Of a DNA stretch of 52,315 bases, positions 4,361-37,109 are shown in pieces (position 1 is the stretch's first letter; each line of letters starts with the position of its first letter). Location of the stretch: assembly GCA_001938485.1 (NCBI GenBank), contig MQRK01250436.1:1-52315 (forward strand), given 5' to 3'. The notes beneath the pieces are model-generated. The model was given only the letters and a program-made list of their open reading frames with translations. It had not been told where the DNA came from and ran no database searches. Made by a program: the position numbers and the translations under genes. This DNA is from Girardia tigrina. Taxonomy: Eukaryota.

Positions 4361-5894
4361 ATCGTTTTTCACAAAAAATAAGGTAATTCCTTCATTTATT
4401 TCCAAAATCATTGTCATCTTATTAACTCTTTTTTTACAAAGAAAAATTTATTTGAACAAATCATAAACAATGTTTTCCTTTCAAATTGTACAAAAACAAA
4501 ATTAAAATATTTTTCGCCATGAACAAAATCAAATTCAAAAATATTGATTCAAACTATCAAAAAAATTCATCTAAACAATTCTTCCAACTTAACAATTGAT
4601 TAAAAAAACAATTTCGATCGATATTCATAAATTCTTTTACAAAAAAACCATACCACAAAAAACGGTAACTATAAACGACTACATCAAAATTACATTAATT
4701 TTCTTATTTAATTTGGCAACAATTTTCATTAATTTTTTAAATGATTTTTTTACTTCTATTTATTTTTTTAATTCAATCAATTATTCGATGGATTTTCGTT
4801 AATTATCAATTTTTCCGCGGAATTTTCGAACAGAATTTCAATTTTTTCATTTTCGATTTTTGATATGTGGAGCGGAGAATTGCTGATTTGACCGAACATT
4901 TTTGCTAGTTTCAGGAAAATATAAATAAATTAAGAAATTAAATGAAATAATTAAATAACTTTAAAAAAAATTAAACAATAAATTAAATAAAGGCTCTATT
5001 TGAAAATGTTTAACAGAGAAGTTGAGTGTGAAGCTTGGATATTAATTTTTGGATCCATGGATCTTATTAATAAGGCCTCACACGTTACTCTCTCCCAGTA
5101 ATNNNNNNNNNNNNNNNNNNNNNNNNNNNNNNNNNNNNNNNNNNNNNNNNNNATTACTGGGAGAGAGTAACGTGTGAGGCCTTATTAATAAGATCCATGG
5201 ATCCAAAAATTAATATCCAAGCTTCACACTCAACTTCTCTGTTAAACATTTTCAAATAGAGCCTTTATTTAATTTATTGTTTAATTTTTTTTAAAGTTAT
5301 TTAATTATTTCATTTAATTTCTTAATTTATTTATATTTTCCTGAAACTAGCAAAAATGTTCGGTCAAATCAGCAATTCTCCGCTCCACATATCAAAAATC
5401 GAAAATGAAAAAATTGAAATTCTGTTCGAAAATTCCGCGGAAAAATTGATAATTAACGAAAATCCATCGAATAATTGATTGAATTAAAAAAATAAATAGA
5501 AGTAAAAAAATCATTTAAAAAATTAATGAAAATTGTTGCCAAATTAAATAAGAAAATTAATGTAATTTTGATGTAGTCGTTTATAGTTACCGTTTTTTGT
5601 GGTATGGTTTTTTTGTAAAAGAATTTATGAATATCGATCGAAATTGTTTTTTTAATCAATTGTTAAGTTGGAAGAATTGTTTAGATGAATTTTTTTGATA
5701 GTTTGAATCAATATTTTTGAATTTGATTTTGTTCATGGCGAAAAATATTTTAATTTTGTTTTTGTACAATTTGAAAGGAAAACATTGTTTATGATTTGTT
5801 CAAATAAATTTTTCTTTGTAAAAAAAGAGTTAATAAGATGACAATGATTTTGGAAATAAATGAAGGAATTACCTTATTTTTTGTGAAAAACGAT
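4361..5894. repeat. 742-bp inverted duplication (palindrome) around a 50-N gap
   Basis: 4361-5102 is the reverse complement of 5153-5894; identical 68-aa ORFs on opposite strands. Confidence 0.95.
5153..5258 (+). mobile_element. Penelope-like GIY-YIG endonuclease C-terminus (mirror copy about 4997-5102)
   Basis: YWERVTCEALLIRSMDPKINIQ matches the PLE E-A-L-x-I...P-x-I/L-N motif; homologous to 20341-20440 and 32060-32200. Confidence 0.75.
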
Positions 5895-8400: not shown

Positions 8401-9325
8401 TAAAAATAATTTAATTTAATTTTAAAGTAAAAAGATTTAAAATAATTTTTGAATGTATTATTTATTTTTTAATGTAATTTAAAATTTTAATATATTAATT
8501 TAATTGGTTCTTTTTTTAAAAAATGTTTAGATTTAATTTTAATTAATTAGATTTTTTATAATTAATAAATTTTATTAAAAGATTTTCATTTATTGAAAAA
8601 AATTAGTATAAATTCAGAAAAAAATATTAATCGAGAAAATGTAAAATAGCGAGTCTTTTGAATAATGGCTGTCATAACAATTCTACTTGTGTTGTTAATG
8701 AATGTTTGTGTTCGATTCACATGGGGGGCATATCGAAGTGAACCCAAAAAGAAAAAATTAAAATTCGTCAAAAGTTGCAACTTATGAAGAGTTCAAAATC
8801 AGCAATAAATCGGACAAATTTGTTATTTGGAATTAACTCCAATTCAATTTAAAATTGTGTTTGAATAATGAAAACAGTGATTGATCAAATATTTTGTTTG
8901 TCTTTTGTTAAAAAATGATTAAAATGATAAAAAATTTAAATAAAAAAATATATGTAAAAATGTTAAAAAGCAAAAAAAAGAAAAAGGTTTTTCGAAATTG
9001 TAAAAAAAAACTAATTAAAAAAATGATTCGATTTGTTTTATAGAATAAAATAAAGAAAAATGTGTTAAAAAGCGATTTGTTTAAATAGATTAGTTTTGTT
9101 TATGATTTTTTGGCGTAATTTTAAAATTTGATGAAAAATAAATGCGATTTGTGAAGTGGAATTTTTTTTGTGATATTATTGTTATATTTTCACATATTAT
9201 GGATTTTAAGTGTAATATTGACGATGCTGATTTCTGCTAATGTTTGAGTTTGAGAATTGCATGTTTACATAAAGAGAAAGGACAAATCACAATCATCGAT
9301 CACCACAATTTAAAAAAAAGACTTA

Positions 9326-9936
9326 ATGATTTTCGGCAGCTCTTCATATAGTAAATGCGAAAGTTATAAAGACTACATTACGATATGGAAATCGTCTGTT
9401 TCCGACCAAAATTCTATGGTAAATAAAATCGCTCGAAAAGAATACATTTCCGAAGACGAATCGATGTTACGAGTGACGATCATCGACGATAAAGTGAAAG
9501 ACGACTCAGAACTAATCGTGCTTCTATCGGATTACGTGAGATTATCAAATGAGAAAGATAGTACAAAGGAAATAATCGAAACAGCCAGAGAAGATCGATC
9601 GGAGATTAAAATTAAACGAAATTGAATCGTTCAGGATTTGTGCGTGACGATAGTCGATCGATCGTATCGAAATGAGGAATTTCACGCTCAATCTACCGTA
9701 ATTGATAAGGTTTATGATAAGGAGATTTCAAGTGCGTGACCGCCGATGGTCGAATTTTGTATGAGTTGACGAGTGGGATGTTGGAGTTTGTTGGACCGAG
9801 TCGGGGTCGATTTGCGTGAGTTATGGGTGGTGTGAAGTCAAATGAAGTTGTGATGGTGAAGGAGATTAATGAGGTCCTAGGAGCGGCGACTGTTGTTGTT
9901 AGAGCCGATGATTATGCATCTGATGATGACGAATAG
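9326..9936 (+). pseudogene. GPKOW: GPKOW/Spp2-like C-terminal KOW region
   Basis: *IVQDLCVTIVDRSYRNEEFH..VIDKV..FKCVTADGRILYELTSGMLE..acidic tail SDDDE* parallels GPKOW WLxxDLRVRFVDxxYKGG..CRTDEGRVLEGLREDMLE; internal stops and one frameshift. Confidence 0.75.
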
Positions 9937-12417: not shown

Positions 12418-12765
12418 TCAATAACATTTTGGTTTTTTTATCAAAATACTGTGTAATCTCATTAGGAGGTTATCAATTTTGTTAATATGTGCACTCAGTT
12501 TCGGAGTCAAATATTTGCTTAAAATATCTTCGCAACCATAAATAATGCCGGATAACGCACCAACTATTATCGGACAATAATTTGAGGGCATTGCGAACGC
12601 CTTGCTTGTCTCCACAGCTTCGGAAAATGAGTTTGTGCTCGAAATGAAGTATATAGAGGCTTTGATAACATCCGTACAGTAACTTCCTCGACTCAGGTTA
12701 GCTCGGGATTCTAAGATAAGACCTTCTTCCAAAGCATTTTTAACCGGAAAAGTAAATTTTACCTT
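12418..12765 (-). pseudogene. ADP-ribosylglycohydrolase-family C-terminal exon
   Basis: GSYCTDVIKASIYFI..SFSEAV..FAMPSNYCPIIVGALSGIIYG..I; candidate AG acceptor just upstream; no upstream exons recognised. Confidence 0.65.
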
Positions 12766-12885
12766 AATAAGAAAATTAGCTAATTAAAACTTTAGATTAT
12801 TTTTACAATAATTAAGAAAAATATATTTATTAAATTTTATTCAATTCTTTATATTTAGAACAATATATCTTAAAATAAATATAAT

Positions 12886-24589: not shown

Positions 24590-24978
24590 TGTTTCCATTT
24601 GGCGAGCAGTGGTATATGTAGGAGCCAATGATAAATCGAGAAAATGTATCAAATATGTGTGTGCCGGTTTGATAAGCCGAAAATTTGATGGCCATAATAT
24701 TCAGAGAAAGGGGTCCGCCGAATGAACTATCATGAGACAATAGTAAGTGTTTTCGATCGGATAAACTGCAACACCTGTGCAGCACGTGGAATGTCATAGT
24801 TAGGTACCGCTGTGCTTACAGACCATCCGGGAACGGTATCGTTGAGAGGAATCATCGGACGATAAAGAGAATGGCAGCAAGGACTAAAGGTGATGTGTTT
24901 GATATGGTGTTCAACCACAAAATAACACCAAAAAACGAGACGGATGACAAGTCAGCTACCAGTAATGGAACCTATCGG
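24590..24978 (+). mobile_element. Gypsy integrase core (not in ORF track)
   Basis: IFRERGPPNELS*DNSKCFRSDKLQHLCSTWNV..RCAYRPSGNGIVERNHRTIKRMAAR, the D..35..E region. Confidence 0.92.
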
Positions 24979-25026
24979 TGTTTCCGAATTGCCCGAAAGA
25001 AAAGAGCATCTGGACCCATAGAGATG

Positions 25027-25642
25027 CCTTCGGACTCCAGGATACACAAAACGCATTCGATTTCTGATTTATAATATCGATTTTGTTTTCTTTCACACAA
25101 CACAATGAGACTGTATCGTTCAAAACCATTAAAAACGACTCTTTCTCATTTAGATGCCACCGCAAATTGACCAACTGACTCTCGGTATTCGGTTTATATT
25201 CACAAAATTTCGATTCTTCATTCTTCAGCAGCGATCTCTCGACACGGAACAGCCGGACAGTCACCAATAGACAATAATCGGTCACCAAGGCGACCAGCAG
25301 AATCGATCCACCGCAACTGAACTCGATCCAGGCGACACTCAACCGGAATTTGATCGAGAAAATCGGATCGACACTCACGAGTTTGTCTTTCAAGTCGACC
25401 GATTCAACACTCGCTCTCTCATTCGAGGAGATTTTGCAGAAATTCACATCGTTGTTGGTAATCGACACCAATAATCCGGCCCGACAATCGATTGCATTAT
25501 ATCGGATGTTTTTCGTGTATTTAGTCGATGTCGATTTGAATGGATGAAGCGTTTGAAAAACAGCATTTAGCGAATTCGATTTGTCGTTAAATCTTTCGAA
25601 TCTTTCACAGAATACTTTAACCATTTTTGTATCGATTTTCAT
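25027..25642 (-). pseudogene. NUP214: NUP214/Nup159 N-terminal beta-propeller, 3'-truncated
   Basis: About 205 uninterrupted codons with IEFSCGGSILLV, LVNLRWH..FLMVLND..L and FCVSWSPK (Nup214 CWSPKGKQL), then abrupt loss of homology. Confidence 0.75.
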
Positions 25643-25896
25643 ATTGATTGATTCCCATTTCGCTAAAAAAACCAATCTTATTAGAATAATTCTCTATTCG
25701 CCGATCACACAGAAACACTGCGCCGTTTATTTGATTATTTCTATTCAAATTTCGATTTAAAATCGATTCGAGTTTGATAATATCGACGAGAAGACTCAGC
25801 GCATCGAAAATCGTATCATTCAATGTTTTTATAATTTTAATATTTGCGGTCTTTTTTAACATCGCGATTAACACAATTCAGTATCCAGAAAAGAAA

Positions 25897-26302
25897 TTCA
25901 CTTTTTTTAATCAATTGAAAACGATAACGTCACGTATCAAATTTACTTTCATCAATAATCAAAACTCTGTCGTATTTACAGGTCATTCAATTCAACACAA
26001 CAAAACAAAACTCAAGGTCATTTTTTTGAGTTTTAAATTATCAAAAATATCATTTTTCAATCTCAAAATAAAATATTACAATTAAACTGGATTTTTTTTC
26101 ACTTTTTTTAATCAATTGAAAACGATAACGTCACGTATCGAATTTACTTTCATCAATAATCAAAACTCTGTCGTATTTACAGGTCATTCAATTCAACACA
26201 ACAAAACAAAACTCAAGGTCATTTTTTTGAGTTTTAAATTATCAAAAATATCATTTTTCAATCTCAAAATAAAATATTACAATTAAACTGGATTTTTTTT
26301 CA
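25897..26302 (+). repeat. 201-bp tandem duplication
   Basis: Two copies starting 25897 and 26098, one substitution seen. Confidence 0.92.
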
Positions 26303-26438
26303 AGAATGGAACGATTTTTCCCCTTTTTAATTACAATTATCACAATAATTTTATAAATATATATATAAAGATTTTTTCTACTATACTTTTAACAACAAAA
26401 AAATTAAATATATACAAATATTCGATCAATTCGTAACA

Positions 26439-26812
26439 ATCGGTACGATTGGCGATTCCCGATGGTTAAGCCGGAAAAAGGATGCTATGATGAGAGTGAG
26501 TTCAAGGTTTGTGAGCAGGTTTATGTGAAGCCCGGTGGGACACGGTGTACAGCTCGATGGCAGAGAGGAGTTGTGTCGCGGTTTCACTCCGGATCGTCGG
26601 TTGACTCGGACGGTATTCCAAGGAATATTGCAGACTTGAGGCATGTGTCGCCTGAGCGATGACTTACGGAGATTGGAGAGGCATCGGAGCGGGAAGACGA
26701 GTTGGTGTCTGTGGCGAAGAGATGTACTTCGACGGCACCGCGGACGGTTCGAGTAATCCTGCCTTACTGGGTAGACCACTATGTAACATGTGATGTGGAT
26801 ATCACGGGGGCG
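26439..26812 (+). mobile_element. Gypsy integrase C-terminus and polypurine tract
   Basis: RYDWRFP..FKVCEQVYVKPGGTRCTARWQRGVV..DGIPRNIADLR; purine run CACGGGGGCG then TGTGATAA (3' LTR start at 26813). Confidence 0.8.
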
Positions 26813-30292: not shown

Positions 30293-30583
30293 TGAAATTT
30301 TTGAGCTGGAAAATTCCAGACTTATAATTGATAATTTCTAGATAAAATTTCAAGAAAAAATAACGGACAAAAAAAACAATTTACCGTTAAAAAATTAATT
30401 AACAAAAAATAAAAAATAAACGGAATAACAATGTTCAATTTTGTTTTACTACTGTGTCTAAAATAAAAAATTTTGATTTAGCTTTCTTTTCACCATTTTC
30501 AATATTATTTTCGATTACGACTTTTCGGTTTCTCTAAAGCCGATTTTCGAGTGCAATTCATCGATTAGTAATCAAAAAATAAA

Positions 30584-30930
30584 ATGCTCGTTTCGAATGA
30601 TCGTGTCGAAATCACGAGAAAGCTCGATGAACTTGCCGATAGTTCCGGTCGGCCTCGTCCGGTCGATGATCCTACCAACCGGTTCCAATTCGTAAAAAGG
30701 AAAACCCTTCCGCAACTAATGCGACATAAATATTCCTTTCCGTTTCTCCATCCGGTCGGTCACACGGCGCTCGGCATCCAAGATCATCCGAAAATCGTGC
30801 ACTATCCAATGGATGTCATTTCCATCATAAATCGATTGATCAAGAAATTCTACTACAACACTGATCAGTGCATTTCCAATGTGATACTAGTGCCCCAGAA
30901 TTACTGTATCTTCAATCCGACCGCTGAATC
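30584..30930 (+). pseudogene. BET-family (BRD2/3/4/fsh-like) first bromodomain fragment
   Basis: TNRFQFV..LMRHKYSFPFLHPV..LGIQDHPKIVHYPMDV.SI..RL..FY...QCI......NYCIFN; several conserved residues altered; homology ends after BD1. Confidence 0.85.
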
Positions 30931-31934
30931 AAACACCATCTCGGTTGTGATGATGAAATTGAGTTCCCGGTCCCCGAGCACTTTGATCACTCTGGGCCAG
31001 ATGCCGGCATTTATATTTACGTCAAAATGCCACCCATTAAAGGTAAACTAATATTTTCATCAACATATTCGCGAGATCTCATCTCGCAGATAAACCACGC
31101 CCACATCACAGATATTAACAATGGAATTTCTTCGCGCTAATCATAGGGAGTGGGAAGAATACAAATACTTAATTGTGAAGTGTGAGCAAAAAATCTGTTG
31201 TTTCATAAAGTACTAAGCAAAAATATTTTCCTTGATTTACTCTTCCTAATTAAACAACATTAAATTAATTGATTTCGTATTAATTAAGACACATGTCTAT
31301 CTCTTGTGTTATTATTTTCTTCCATAATAGGGTCTCTGCAGGTAGCTCTGTAACACAGAAGCTCTGAAGTTTACTTCATTTTCAATGGAAATTTCTGGTT
31401 CGATAACTATATACCAATCATCTCTGTATCCCATGTACAATAAGTTCTCTATTTCAAGAAATATTATGAGTTTAGCAATTAATTTTAGTCTTTCAAATCG
31501 TTTAAATGAGATTTATCTAAATCTACAATGTATTTTGTATTTAAACAAGTATAAGACACAGTGCTTATTATTTTATTACACTTCCCATGATCTCACTAAA
31601 AATTCACATAATCAACTAGAAATTTAGGGGGTTTTAGTACCAGCATCGGTTGATAATTGTTAGAAAAACGAAAGCGATGAATGAAAAAACAAAAAGAAAA
31701 AAAATTAAAACCGATGAAGATAGAAATTACCAAAACAATTAAAATTTTAATTTATTTATATTTTTTGACAATAAATTGTAAATAAAACAATTATGCGATA
31801 TTCTTTCATGTGAAAAAAATCCTCAGAATTTTCGACTCACATTTACTTAGAACATAGAAAAGAATGTTTTTTTAAAAAATAAACTTGAAAAAAGATGGCA
31901 ATTTTTTTATTATAAACAAATAAACACCATTTAA

Positions 31935-35900: not shown

Positions 35901-36760
35901 TATTTTATCTTTTGTAAGCATTTTTTTTCTGTTTCTGGATACAACATTAACCGTATTTTCTTTAGGTGGTACCGGGTCTGTACGCTCCATGTATTTACGA
36001 TCCTCGGCCGATACTATACCCTCTTCTAATTTATCACATATATTATCTGTTTCGATTTTGATTATACTTCCTTTCTGTTCATTCGCATTTGTAAACTGAC
36101 CTTCATCCTTTGATTTGAGATCTATACTCTTTTTGAATTTTTTAATTTCTTTACTTTGATGGTTCATGATTACAAATTTTGCTAAGAATGGTATACATCC
36201 GGTAATTAACTTCTATGTAAAACCTACTGCCTTGTATAAAGTATTTGTAGACACCAATTGCAGTAAAACTGCTTTGACAACGATTAAAACCGCATATATT
36301 CCAATTAAACCTGCTACAAAAGTGACAAAGCTTGTACATCGCTCCCATGTTTTACGAATTACACTCATAGCTATCTTTTGATAATGGTCTACTCCAAACA
36401 ATAACTCGTAATTAGGCTGCTCAAAATTATCACTCATTACTGTCTCAAACAAATTTTTGATAACTCTTTCTCTCTTGTTTGGAAACAATATATTTCTTCG
36501 AGTTTCTTCTATTTCTTCTTCTGTATAAAGACCACTTTTTTCAAAAGTTTCAACGTTTTCGAATTGAATTTCATGTTCTAGTTTTACCATCTCCCAATTT
36601 TCTATTCTTTGTATCCTTTTTCTGTTAGGTAATATATATGTTACACATATATCATTTGATATTTGATAAGCTGGAGCCATTAACATATTATACTTCAGAA
36701 ATCTAGGTTGTCGATTTGATTGTAATAAAATTCGTGTAACTGGTTCCATATACCCAGAAA
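35901..36760 (-). mobile_element. Chuvirus/gB-like (class III) envelope glycoprotein, C-terminal half
   Basis: MEPVTRIL..PAY..GLYTEEE....ILFP..RE.VI..W......AGLIGIY....K.......LYKAVGF(T*)KL pattern with a TM segment; one in-frame stop. Confidence 0.7.
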
Positions 36761-37109
36761 TTATATTAATAAAAATAAAAATAATAATATCAATCAAGGA
36801 ATATGTATTTCAAAAATTTAAAACAATCACCTGTGCGCATAAATCAAAAATCAATACAAATGAAAATCCAGTTATTCGGTTTTATACCAAAAAAAACAGA
36901 CAGAGATTGACGATGAGAATTACAACCGAAAATCGGATATGGTCCAAAAAAGGACCATGTGAAAATGAATTCAGAATCAATTGTTAAAATATTAATCAAT
37001 TAATATTTTCAATTAATATTTTTTAATCAATTAAATTAACCAATTATTAAAATATATTAAAGTTATTGAAAGTTTATTTTTTTTAAAAAAGTTCTTTTTC
37101 GAATTTTTC

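Follow-up and report, generated by a model that had tools for sequence, protein, structure and literature searches.

Solo long terminal repeats (LTRs) are TG..CA units flanked by a target-site duplication (TSD) and arise by recombination between the two LTRs of a retrotransposon. Open reading frames can overlap LTRs, as do MMTV sag and HIV nef in retroviruses, and the Ty1 gag gene starts in the LTR, with the Gag frame crossing the primer site. Host gene capture by LTR elements has been described as LTR-mediated retroposition, in which, according to the accessible text of Tan et al. 2016 (PMC5131818), the retrocopies are internal and flanked by retrotransposon sequence; the same text cites maize Bs1 and includes one BEL example from a mosquito. 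The available portion of Gao et al. 2016 (PMC4717578) describes plant TRIMs with exon-only gene fragments in the internal region and 5-bp TSDs, as well as Cassandra, which holds a 5S-rRNA-like sequence within its LTRs. For the BEL/Pao retrotransposons, LTR sizes of 0.2-1.2 kb are given in the accessible part of de la Chaux and Wagner 2011 (PMC3118150). In pestiviruses, as far as the accessible text of PMC8310069 goes, host hydrolases can cut at a captured ubiquitin, even one that lacks its first residues, and thereby release a protein with an authentic N-terminus. Here we describe a BEL/Pao family of Girardia tigrina in which captured host sequence lies inside the LTR itself.

The starting point was a 52,315-nucleotide stretch of the genome (contig MQRK01250436.1, positions 1 to 52,315 of the forward strand; hereafter the window), in which an earlier note had described a TG..CA unit inserted with a 5-bp duplication into a Gypsy integrase. 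The unit occupies 24979-26438, with TG at 24979 and CA at 26437-26438 just inside the two copies of ATCGG that the note had reported on its sides, read at 24974-24978 and 26439-26443 (plus strand). When the flanks were aligned separately to uninterrupted relatives of the surrounding element, the left and right matches overlapped by exactly 5 bp, and the 5-mer was present once at the empty site in 18 of 19 relatives (L032-L050, from genome G000). Thus ATCGG is a true target duplication and the insertion is confirmed; the alternative that the two halves share ATCGG as coding homology, which the note had proposed to check against intact relatives, does not hold. The decayed left half of the interrupted integrase, aligned to relatives that carry rve, extends over 24689-24978 and the right half with the 3' internal region over 26444-26812 (both plus strand), the right flank half being 79% identical to one relative; from about 26813 follow a purine tract and a 3' LTR, both belonging to the interrupted element. 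Its relatives match only from 24689, and not from 24590, the first position of the piece that the note covers. They show rve and weak RVT_3 domain matches, and judged by domain order the interrupted element is likely Gypsy-like. The imperfect inverted repeats ascribed to the ends of the unit are present but weak, with 7 of 12 bases matching without a gap.

A genome search with the unit yielded 1442 first-look candidates, and the 40 that were scored, the window copy itself excepted, were 87-95% identical over most of the unit length. From the fetched loci we extracted 161 LTR ends, some of them redundant. The TSD was determined in the 55 copies with two ends that lack a primer site as well as a purine tract; their starts had been picked from a few candidates, those next to a TSD or purine tract being preferred. 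The TSD was exact in 40 (39 different 5-mers), had one mismatch in 10 and more in 5. Eleven further copies follow a purine tract, and one of the loci (L020, without a TSD) is placed, in the sense of the window minus strand, after a DUF5641 open reading frame (E 2.3e-9) and GGGGAGAGGA. At the other side of the element, the pattern of LTR end plus primer site gave 33 matches versus 0 for the reversed control. The primer site is followed by an AT-rich leader, a piece of the HSP90 middle domain, ubiquitin ending in GG, a DUF1759 Gag and a protease; some copies extend to RT-like, Peptidase_A17, integrase and DUF5641 sequence and others lack most of pol. The order found, DUF1759 Gag, protease, RT, Peptidase_A17/RNase H, integrase and DUF5641, is that of BEL/Pao elements, and Pao domains are present in the G000 copies. 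Furthermore, one database protein of 1709 aa comprises the HSP90 piece, ubiquitin, Gag and Pol in a single frame, with a Gag 95% identical to that of the family; the best named Gag matches are DUF1759/A17 polyproteins with 22-23% identity. Identity between 5' and 3' LTRs was 98.9% over 90 bp and 95.7% over 371 bp, with gaps and truncation elsewhere, and no copy with two complete LTRs was recovered among the fetched loci. A tRNA-like 3' half gave 14 genomic matches, 13 of them complementary to one primer-site variant and one locus (L368) with a CAT triplet upstream; the tRNA would be initiator-Met, and ARAGORN and Rfam called no tRNA at the places that match the primer site. Since the same unit is seen behind the purine tract and DUF5641 and also before the primer site and Gag, the window copy is a solo LTR of a BEL/Pao element; that it is one with mRNA-derived cargo is almost certain. 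The family copies bear out the expectation of an integrase-mobilised, multi-copy unit with 5-bp TSDs, and the search for other copies with such TSDs and different host cargos, suggested in the note, returned both. Among the elements with reduced interiors, the internal regions of L141/L214, L139, L148 and L264 hold ubiquitin-Gag-protease, a glutamate-rich stretch and DUF5641, with most of pol missing. One 5' LTR (L234) of 289 bp, a minimal or deleted form, has no recognisable cargo and no AATAAA, and its leader is open to ubiquitin.

The solo LTR in the window is 1460 bp long and reads on the minus strand (24979-26438), as do its parts described below; the labels U3, R and U5 used for these are presumptive. 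The AT-rich 5' part (25942-26438), putatively U3/R, overlaps a perfect 201-bp tandem duplication (25897-26298) that comparison with the family finds in this copy only, and sister copies without it measure about 1250-1290 bp. The site resembling a poly(A) signal reads AGTAAA here (26143-26148 and 25942-25947) versus AATAAA in sister copies. Next comes an upstream piece (25700-25862, lower boundary approximate) with its own ATG at 25862, which is out of the Gag frame here and in frame in L240 and in P0001-P0004. It resembles the coiled-coil-like proteins P0016 and P0019 (54-60% identity over part of the frame), and an Atlas search with it gave nothing. A spliced NUP214 beta-propeller piece, placed by Pfam and native exon matches, covers 25028-25546 (5' boundary approximate) and is followed by the conserved LTR 3' end (24979-25027), a presumed U5 remnant, with an in-frame ATG at 25009; in 5' LTR copies the frame of this end runs across the primer site towards ubiquitin-Gag. 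What had been taken for upstream DNA of the cargo is the LTR's own AT-rich 5' part and the private duplication.

Copies of one family differ in what the LTR contains. In 18 3' LTR copies the internal 3' end is 84-100% identical to that of L020, yet the LTRs share little beyond their termini, and one family, defined by this common internal 3' end, carries at least seven LTR interior types with lengths of 289-1460 bp. A tree of this internal 3' end leaves most of the branching unresolved, and we do not derive an order of captures from it. We scanned 120 stop-free segments, taken from both strands of 29 LTRs picked to cover the types, against Pfam; this gave sense matches to NUP214, NCKAP1, CCT1, PSMD5, a PHOSPHO-like phosphatase, HUS1, HSP90 and an LRR protein, together with one antisense NDUFS4 match and two weak matches that we disregard as noise. 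Where a gene name says more than the Pfam family, it is our own reading. Several cargos form nested mosaics, in which CCT1 is followed by an NCKAP1 remnant, NCKAP1 by a NUP214 remnant, and HUS1, HSP90 and an LRR remnant occur together. All this cargo sits between the LTR's own termini, the HSP90 middle piece and ubiquitin being the only such sequences in the internal region. The antisense NDUFS4 piece (L107:1692-2228, Pfam E 1.7e-7) is joined to an NCKAP1 remnant at a locus where the LTR 5' end is not visible, and is either cargo or flank. A 184-nt stretch in one LTR copy (L229:2313-2496), skipped by contigs of sequencing runs, does not come from a host gene: it derives from the element's own gag and is inserted in this copy alone, which suggests that template switching acts on the element's own RNA too. 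Several types (L059, L081, L182 and L244) have a palindrome about 45-55 nt before the LTR AATAAA, at LTR positions 130-200, which we take to resemble an RFX X-box, and L088 has a seeming array of such palindromes upstream.

The earlier note had also seen the unit as a possible vehicle behind the other gene fragments of the window, which finds no support: no second LTR of the family was seen there; window matches to the family beyond the unit are short and scattered and were attributed, not each being checked, to flanking repeats. The decayed fragments of a bromodomain (30572-31051, plus strand, E 1.5e-6) and of an ADP-ribosylglycohydrolase-like protein (12418-12783, minus strand, E 0.005) lie outside family LTRs as far as seen. 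The window also contains, on the minus strand at 36213-36809, a fragment of a Monjiviricetes-type fusion glycoprotein (PF24664, E 1.7e-19), either an endogenous viral piece or a retrotransposon envelope. The region 9301-9900 is CpG-rich like host coding DNA and is possibly another gene fragment, its open reading frame 9314-9625 having no Pfam match, and a perfect 767-bp palindrome without spacer (4361-5894) is likely an assembly fold-back.

The cargos are biased to the reading frame of Gag. At least 100 aa are open back from the LTR end in the Gag frame in 49 of 161 copies, versus 4 and 9 in the other two frames. Counted per cargo, after removal of 13 duplicate or short entries and with a cargo match in 140 of 148 LTRs, the last match lies in the Gag frame for NUP214 in 69/78, NCKAP1 in 25/27, CCT1 in 21/24, PSMD5 in 4/4, HSP90 in 2/3, HUS1 in 1/2, LRR in 1/2, the front of PHOSPHO in 5/10 and its middle in 3/11. 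LTR copies are not independent, and therefore junction and deletion events were counted instead: in a hand count, which was not blind, the Gag frame was kept in 19 of 22 events and lost at the main PHOSPHO junction, in L100 and in L107; L101 and L244 were excluded as probably private shifts. We lean slightly towards selection for the Gag frame in the captures. The principal competing explanation accepts the same solo LTR and RNA capture and regards the frame bias as a by-product, with Gag starting near the LTR end and ubiquitin being an unrelated older capture; we consider it unlikely. Codon bias works in its favour, as short matches between unrelated coding pieces are in frame in 45-57% of cases, yet 19 of 22 still exceeds this null (p 7e-5 to 0.003, the latter against 57%). 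Moreover, in most LTRs an in-frame ATG of the LTR itself stands 30 nt from the end, and with it an ATG in the cargo may be unneeded for Gag, in line with a by-product; nevertheless, the frame is kept in the CCT1 type and in L240, which lack this terminal ATG. The leaders point in the direction of a by-product as well: 11 of 17 are shifted, mostly by 1-2 nt in AT tracts, the other 6 being fully open from LTR end to ubiquitin with lengths of 329-638 nt that differ by multiples of 3. A recurring 10-nt deletion just past the primer site breaks the frame in at least 3 separate insertions, and one 1-nt leader loss is common to two copies. In addition, the near-neutral pN/pS of the cargo (0.62 for shared and 0.70 for private changes) indicates little extra peptide constraint, as a by-product would predict. 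Against the native genes pN/pS was 0.24-0.36, a value that cannot tell the two lineages apart and is given no weight here. Two further observations are harder to reconcile with a by-product. In the main PHOSPHO type the off-frame junction is paired with a common upstream +1 shift that reopens the Gag frame, which is open in the less decayed copies. Furthermore, shared indels are rarer in the cargo (5 shared and 46 private) than in the non-coding 5' part (23 shared and 30 private; Fisher p 1.3e-4), a control that is inflated by homopolymers.

The ubiquitin domain between leader and Gag (PF00240, E 7e-27) has no start codon at its normal place, and the GG-Met at its border with Gag is kept in 12 of the 13 copies read, from 15 loci. 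By analogy with the pestiviruses, ubiquitin might be an enabling linker through which host hydrolases free Gag from any leader, a role that we propose only tentatively. Contigs from sequencing runs, with small word shares and one run on record as RNA, cover cargo and Gag, and one of 542 nt spans Gag, ubiquitin and the HSP90 piece. All four runs hold the window-type deletion; none of their contigs was seen bridging the primer site, and there was no cover at 1213-1414. The leader after the primer site, for example in L248, is very AT-rich and gives a hydrophobic run when translated in the Gag frame, possibly a membrane anchor or a mere open spacer.

Comparison with native genes identified the material that was captured. 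The native CCT1 gene (L210) has introns in the 5' UTR and in the coding region, both of which are absent from the LTR copies (93% identical), and between the native NUP214 exons (in L254 and L256) lies an intron, about 2.2 kb long in L254, that is absent from the window LTR. Here 25224-25045 matches one native exon (90.6%) and 25044-25027 the next, the exon-exon join being reproduced base for base at 25045/25044. Thus the cargo, which lacks introns in both genes where this could be checked, is spliced mRNA and not, as had been assumed, captured genomic DNA with upstream sequence. The NCKAP1 cargo (L060) is 94% identical to the native gene L359; the match begins 96 nt ahead of the native ATG, DNA from further upstream being absent, and covers a stretch that spans no intron. 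In the LTR this cargo starts at position 252, the LTR AATAAA standing at 249. AATAAA occurs at LTR positions 140-340 in 70/75 LTRs versus 41/75 on the other strand, and at least 5 unrelated sequences begin directly behind it. G000 contains two divergent CCT1-like genes (L210/L222) and two divergent NCKAP1 genes (L352/L359), and the cargos match L210 and L359. NUP214 is the likely name of the window piece on the strength of sequence similarity: PF16755 matches with E 0.0012 in the window and with E 1.6e-6 in copy L002 (28.1 bits, the cut-off being 29.6), and Pfam backs only about 160 of the roughly 205 codons claimed before. The two native exons were located via a sequence-motif pattern; a Pfam family search for native NUP214 in G000 was empty, and further upstream exons were not found on the two contigs examined. 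With the cargo as query, Atlas returned generic beta-propellers only and a PDB search gave no match.

Spliced, sense-oriented 5' ends of genes would also result from read-in transcription, in which a host promoter drives the transcription of a copy lying in an intron and splicing places host exons in the LTR. However, the three junctions checked against native genes (CCT1, NCKAP1 and NUP214) all lie mid-exon and not at splice donors, that of NUP214 about 17 nt before the donor. Two of the three have short shared sequences, 8 of 9 nt for CCT1-NCKAP1 and 8 nt against one NUP variant for NCKAP1-NUP214, and such read-in transcription is in our judgement quite improbable. LINE-made processed pseudogenes that had landed in existing LTRs and then travelled with them would likewise be intron-free, and open reading frames named from their sequence as LINE-type reverse transcriptases occur in the window; nevertheless, the cargos are front or middle pieces nested at one place where they replace each other, and no poly(A) tail or duplication of their own was seen by eye in the LTRs read, so that this origin is scarcely credible. 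The self-contained, non-autonomous Ginger-like or Pack-type DDE element with captured genomic DNA, suggested by the TG..CA ends, the 5-bp TSD and the lack of a transposase open reading frame in the unit, is refuted by the copies in which this unit is one LTR, either closing a DUF5641 element behind a purine tract or standing on the 5' side of primer site and Gag, and by the spliced cargo, and deserves next to no weight.

The sense orientation of the cargo, its position between AATAAA and LTR end, its start in the host 5' UTR where checked and the joins at short matches fit uptake by a strong-stop template switch, and the host pieces were probably acquired in this way. Reverse transcriptase primed at the primer site would copy the 3' end of the LTR and, during minus-strand strong-stop synthesis, jump at a short match onto a co-packaged host mRNA, which it would copy towards the 5' end; the first strand transfer would then take it back to the element RNA, close to the AATAAA there. 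Each of the two resulting LTRs would consist of U3/R, host piece and LTR end. Repeated rounds would put the newest piece upstream, with older pieces staying as trimmed remnants, and LTR-LTR recombination would then probably leave solo LTRs like the window copy. Least certain are two further points: a supposed advantage in propagation for captures whose single open frame leads from a cargo ATG across the primer site to Gag, and cleavage behind the ubiquitin GG by host deubiquitinases, which would rid Gag of the peptide that precedes it. As a whole, with only slightly less confidence than for the template switch itself, we favour a solo BEL/Pao LTR whose host mRNA was captured in strong-stop synthesis, in which frame-keeping captures were favoured and ubiquitin frees Gag. 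It is quite possible, though less likely than not, that such an LTR acts as a rolling collector of host mRNA 5' ends that swaps the translation leaders of Gag like cassettes. Any strong-stop jump could then equip Gag with another host 5' UTR, start codon and N-terminus, and the captured ubiquitin would make in-frame leaders tolerable by having them cut off.

With the BEL/Pao elements, as far as they are described in the accessible part of PMC3118150, the family shares the order Gag-PR-RT-RH-INT, DUF1759, Peptidase_A17, DUF5641 and overlapping LTR sizes. In contrast to those described, its LTR interiors vary within one family and hold host-type exons, and its Gag is fronted by an HSP90 piece and ubiquitin, a word absent from the main text of that paper. 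The process works like LTR-mediated retroposition and differs in the position of the cargo, which is not internal. Common to both, by the accessible text of PMC5131818, are partial copies of spliced mRNA, short junction matches, multi-gene chimeras and further rounds of transposition; unlike the cases described there, the cargo lies inside the LTR, is doubled each cycle and is left in solo LTRs, pol-bearing copies also carry it, and it is biased to the Gag frame. Plant TRIMs resemble the family in exon-only cargo and 5-bp TSDs and differ, in the portion of PMC4717578 available, by their internal cargo, whereas the Cassandra LTR of the same source holds one fixed non-coding RNA instead of changing protein-coding mosaics. 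The pestivirus of the accessible text of PMC8310069 is an RNA virus with NS3 downstream of ubiquitin, while in the element described here cleavage before Gag would follow from the kept GG-Met. A literature search covering mostly titles and abstract starts, outside Repbase, subscription papers and supplements, found neither the serial capture of mRNA within LTRs nor a ubiquitin-Gag of BEL/Pao elements reported, and the accessible text of PMC7084138 and PMC5408684 has no bearing on this. Unlike the serial host captures seen here, the sequences of MMTV sag, HIV nef and Ty1 gag are fixed genes of their elements.

Gene capture by LTR elements is already known, and in the published cases compared, within the accessible text of PMC5131818 and PMC4717578, the cargo lies between the LTRs. 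Cargo within the LTR is doubled per cycle, remains in solo LTRs, where a promoter probably precedes it, and gives rise to in-frame mosaics of several genes. It is a rapid means of shuffling exons and can make gene families look falsely expanded in annotation, given the number of first-look candidates in this genome; if the proposed mechanism is true, hundreds of promoter-linked, exon-shuffled gene fragments would be scattered as solo LTRs. Moreover, in their nested order the cargos keep a record of the template switches that followed one another and of the mRNAs that get into the particle. Should the ubiquitin linker act in the suggested way, a mobile element could change its translation leader without harming Gag, and the limits on host-gene capture would become directly testable.
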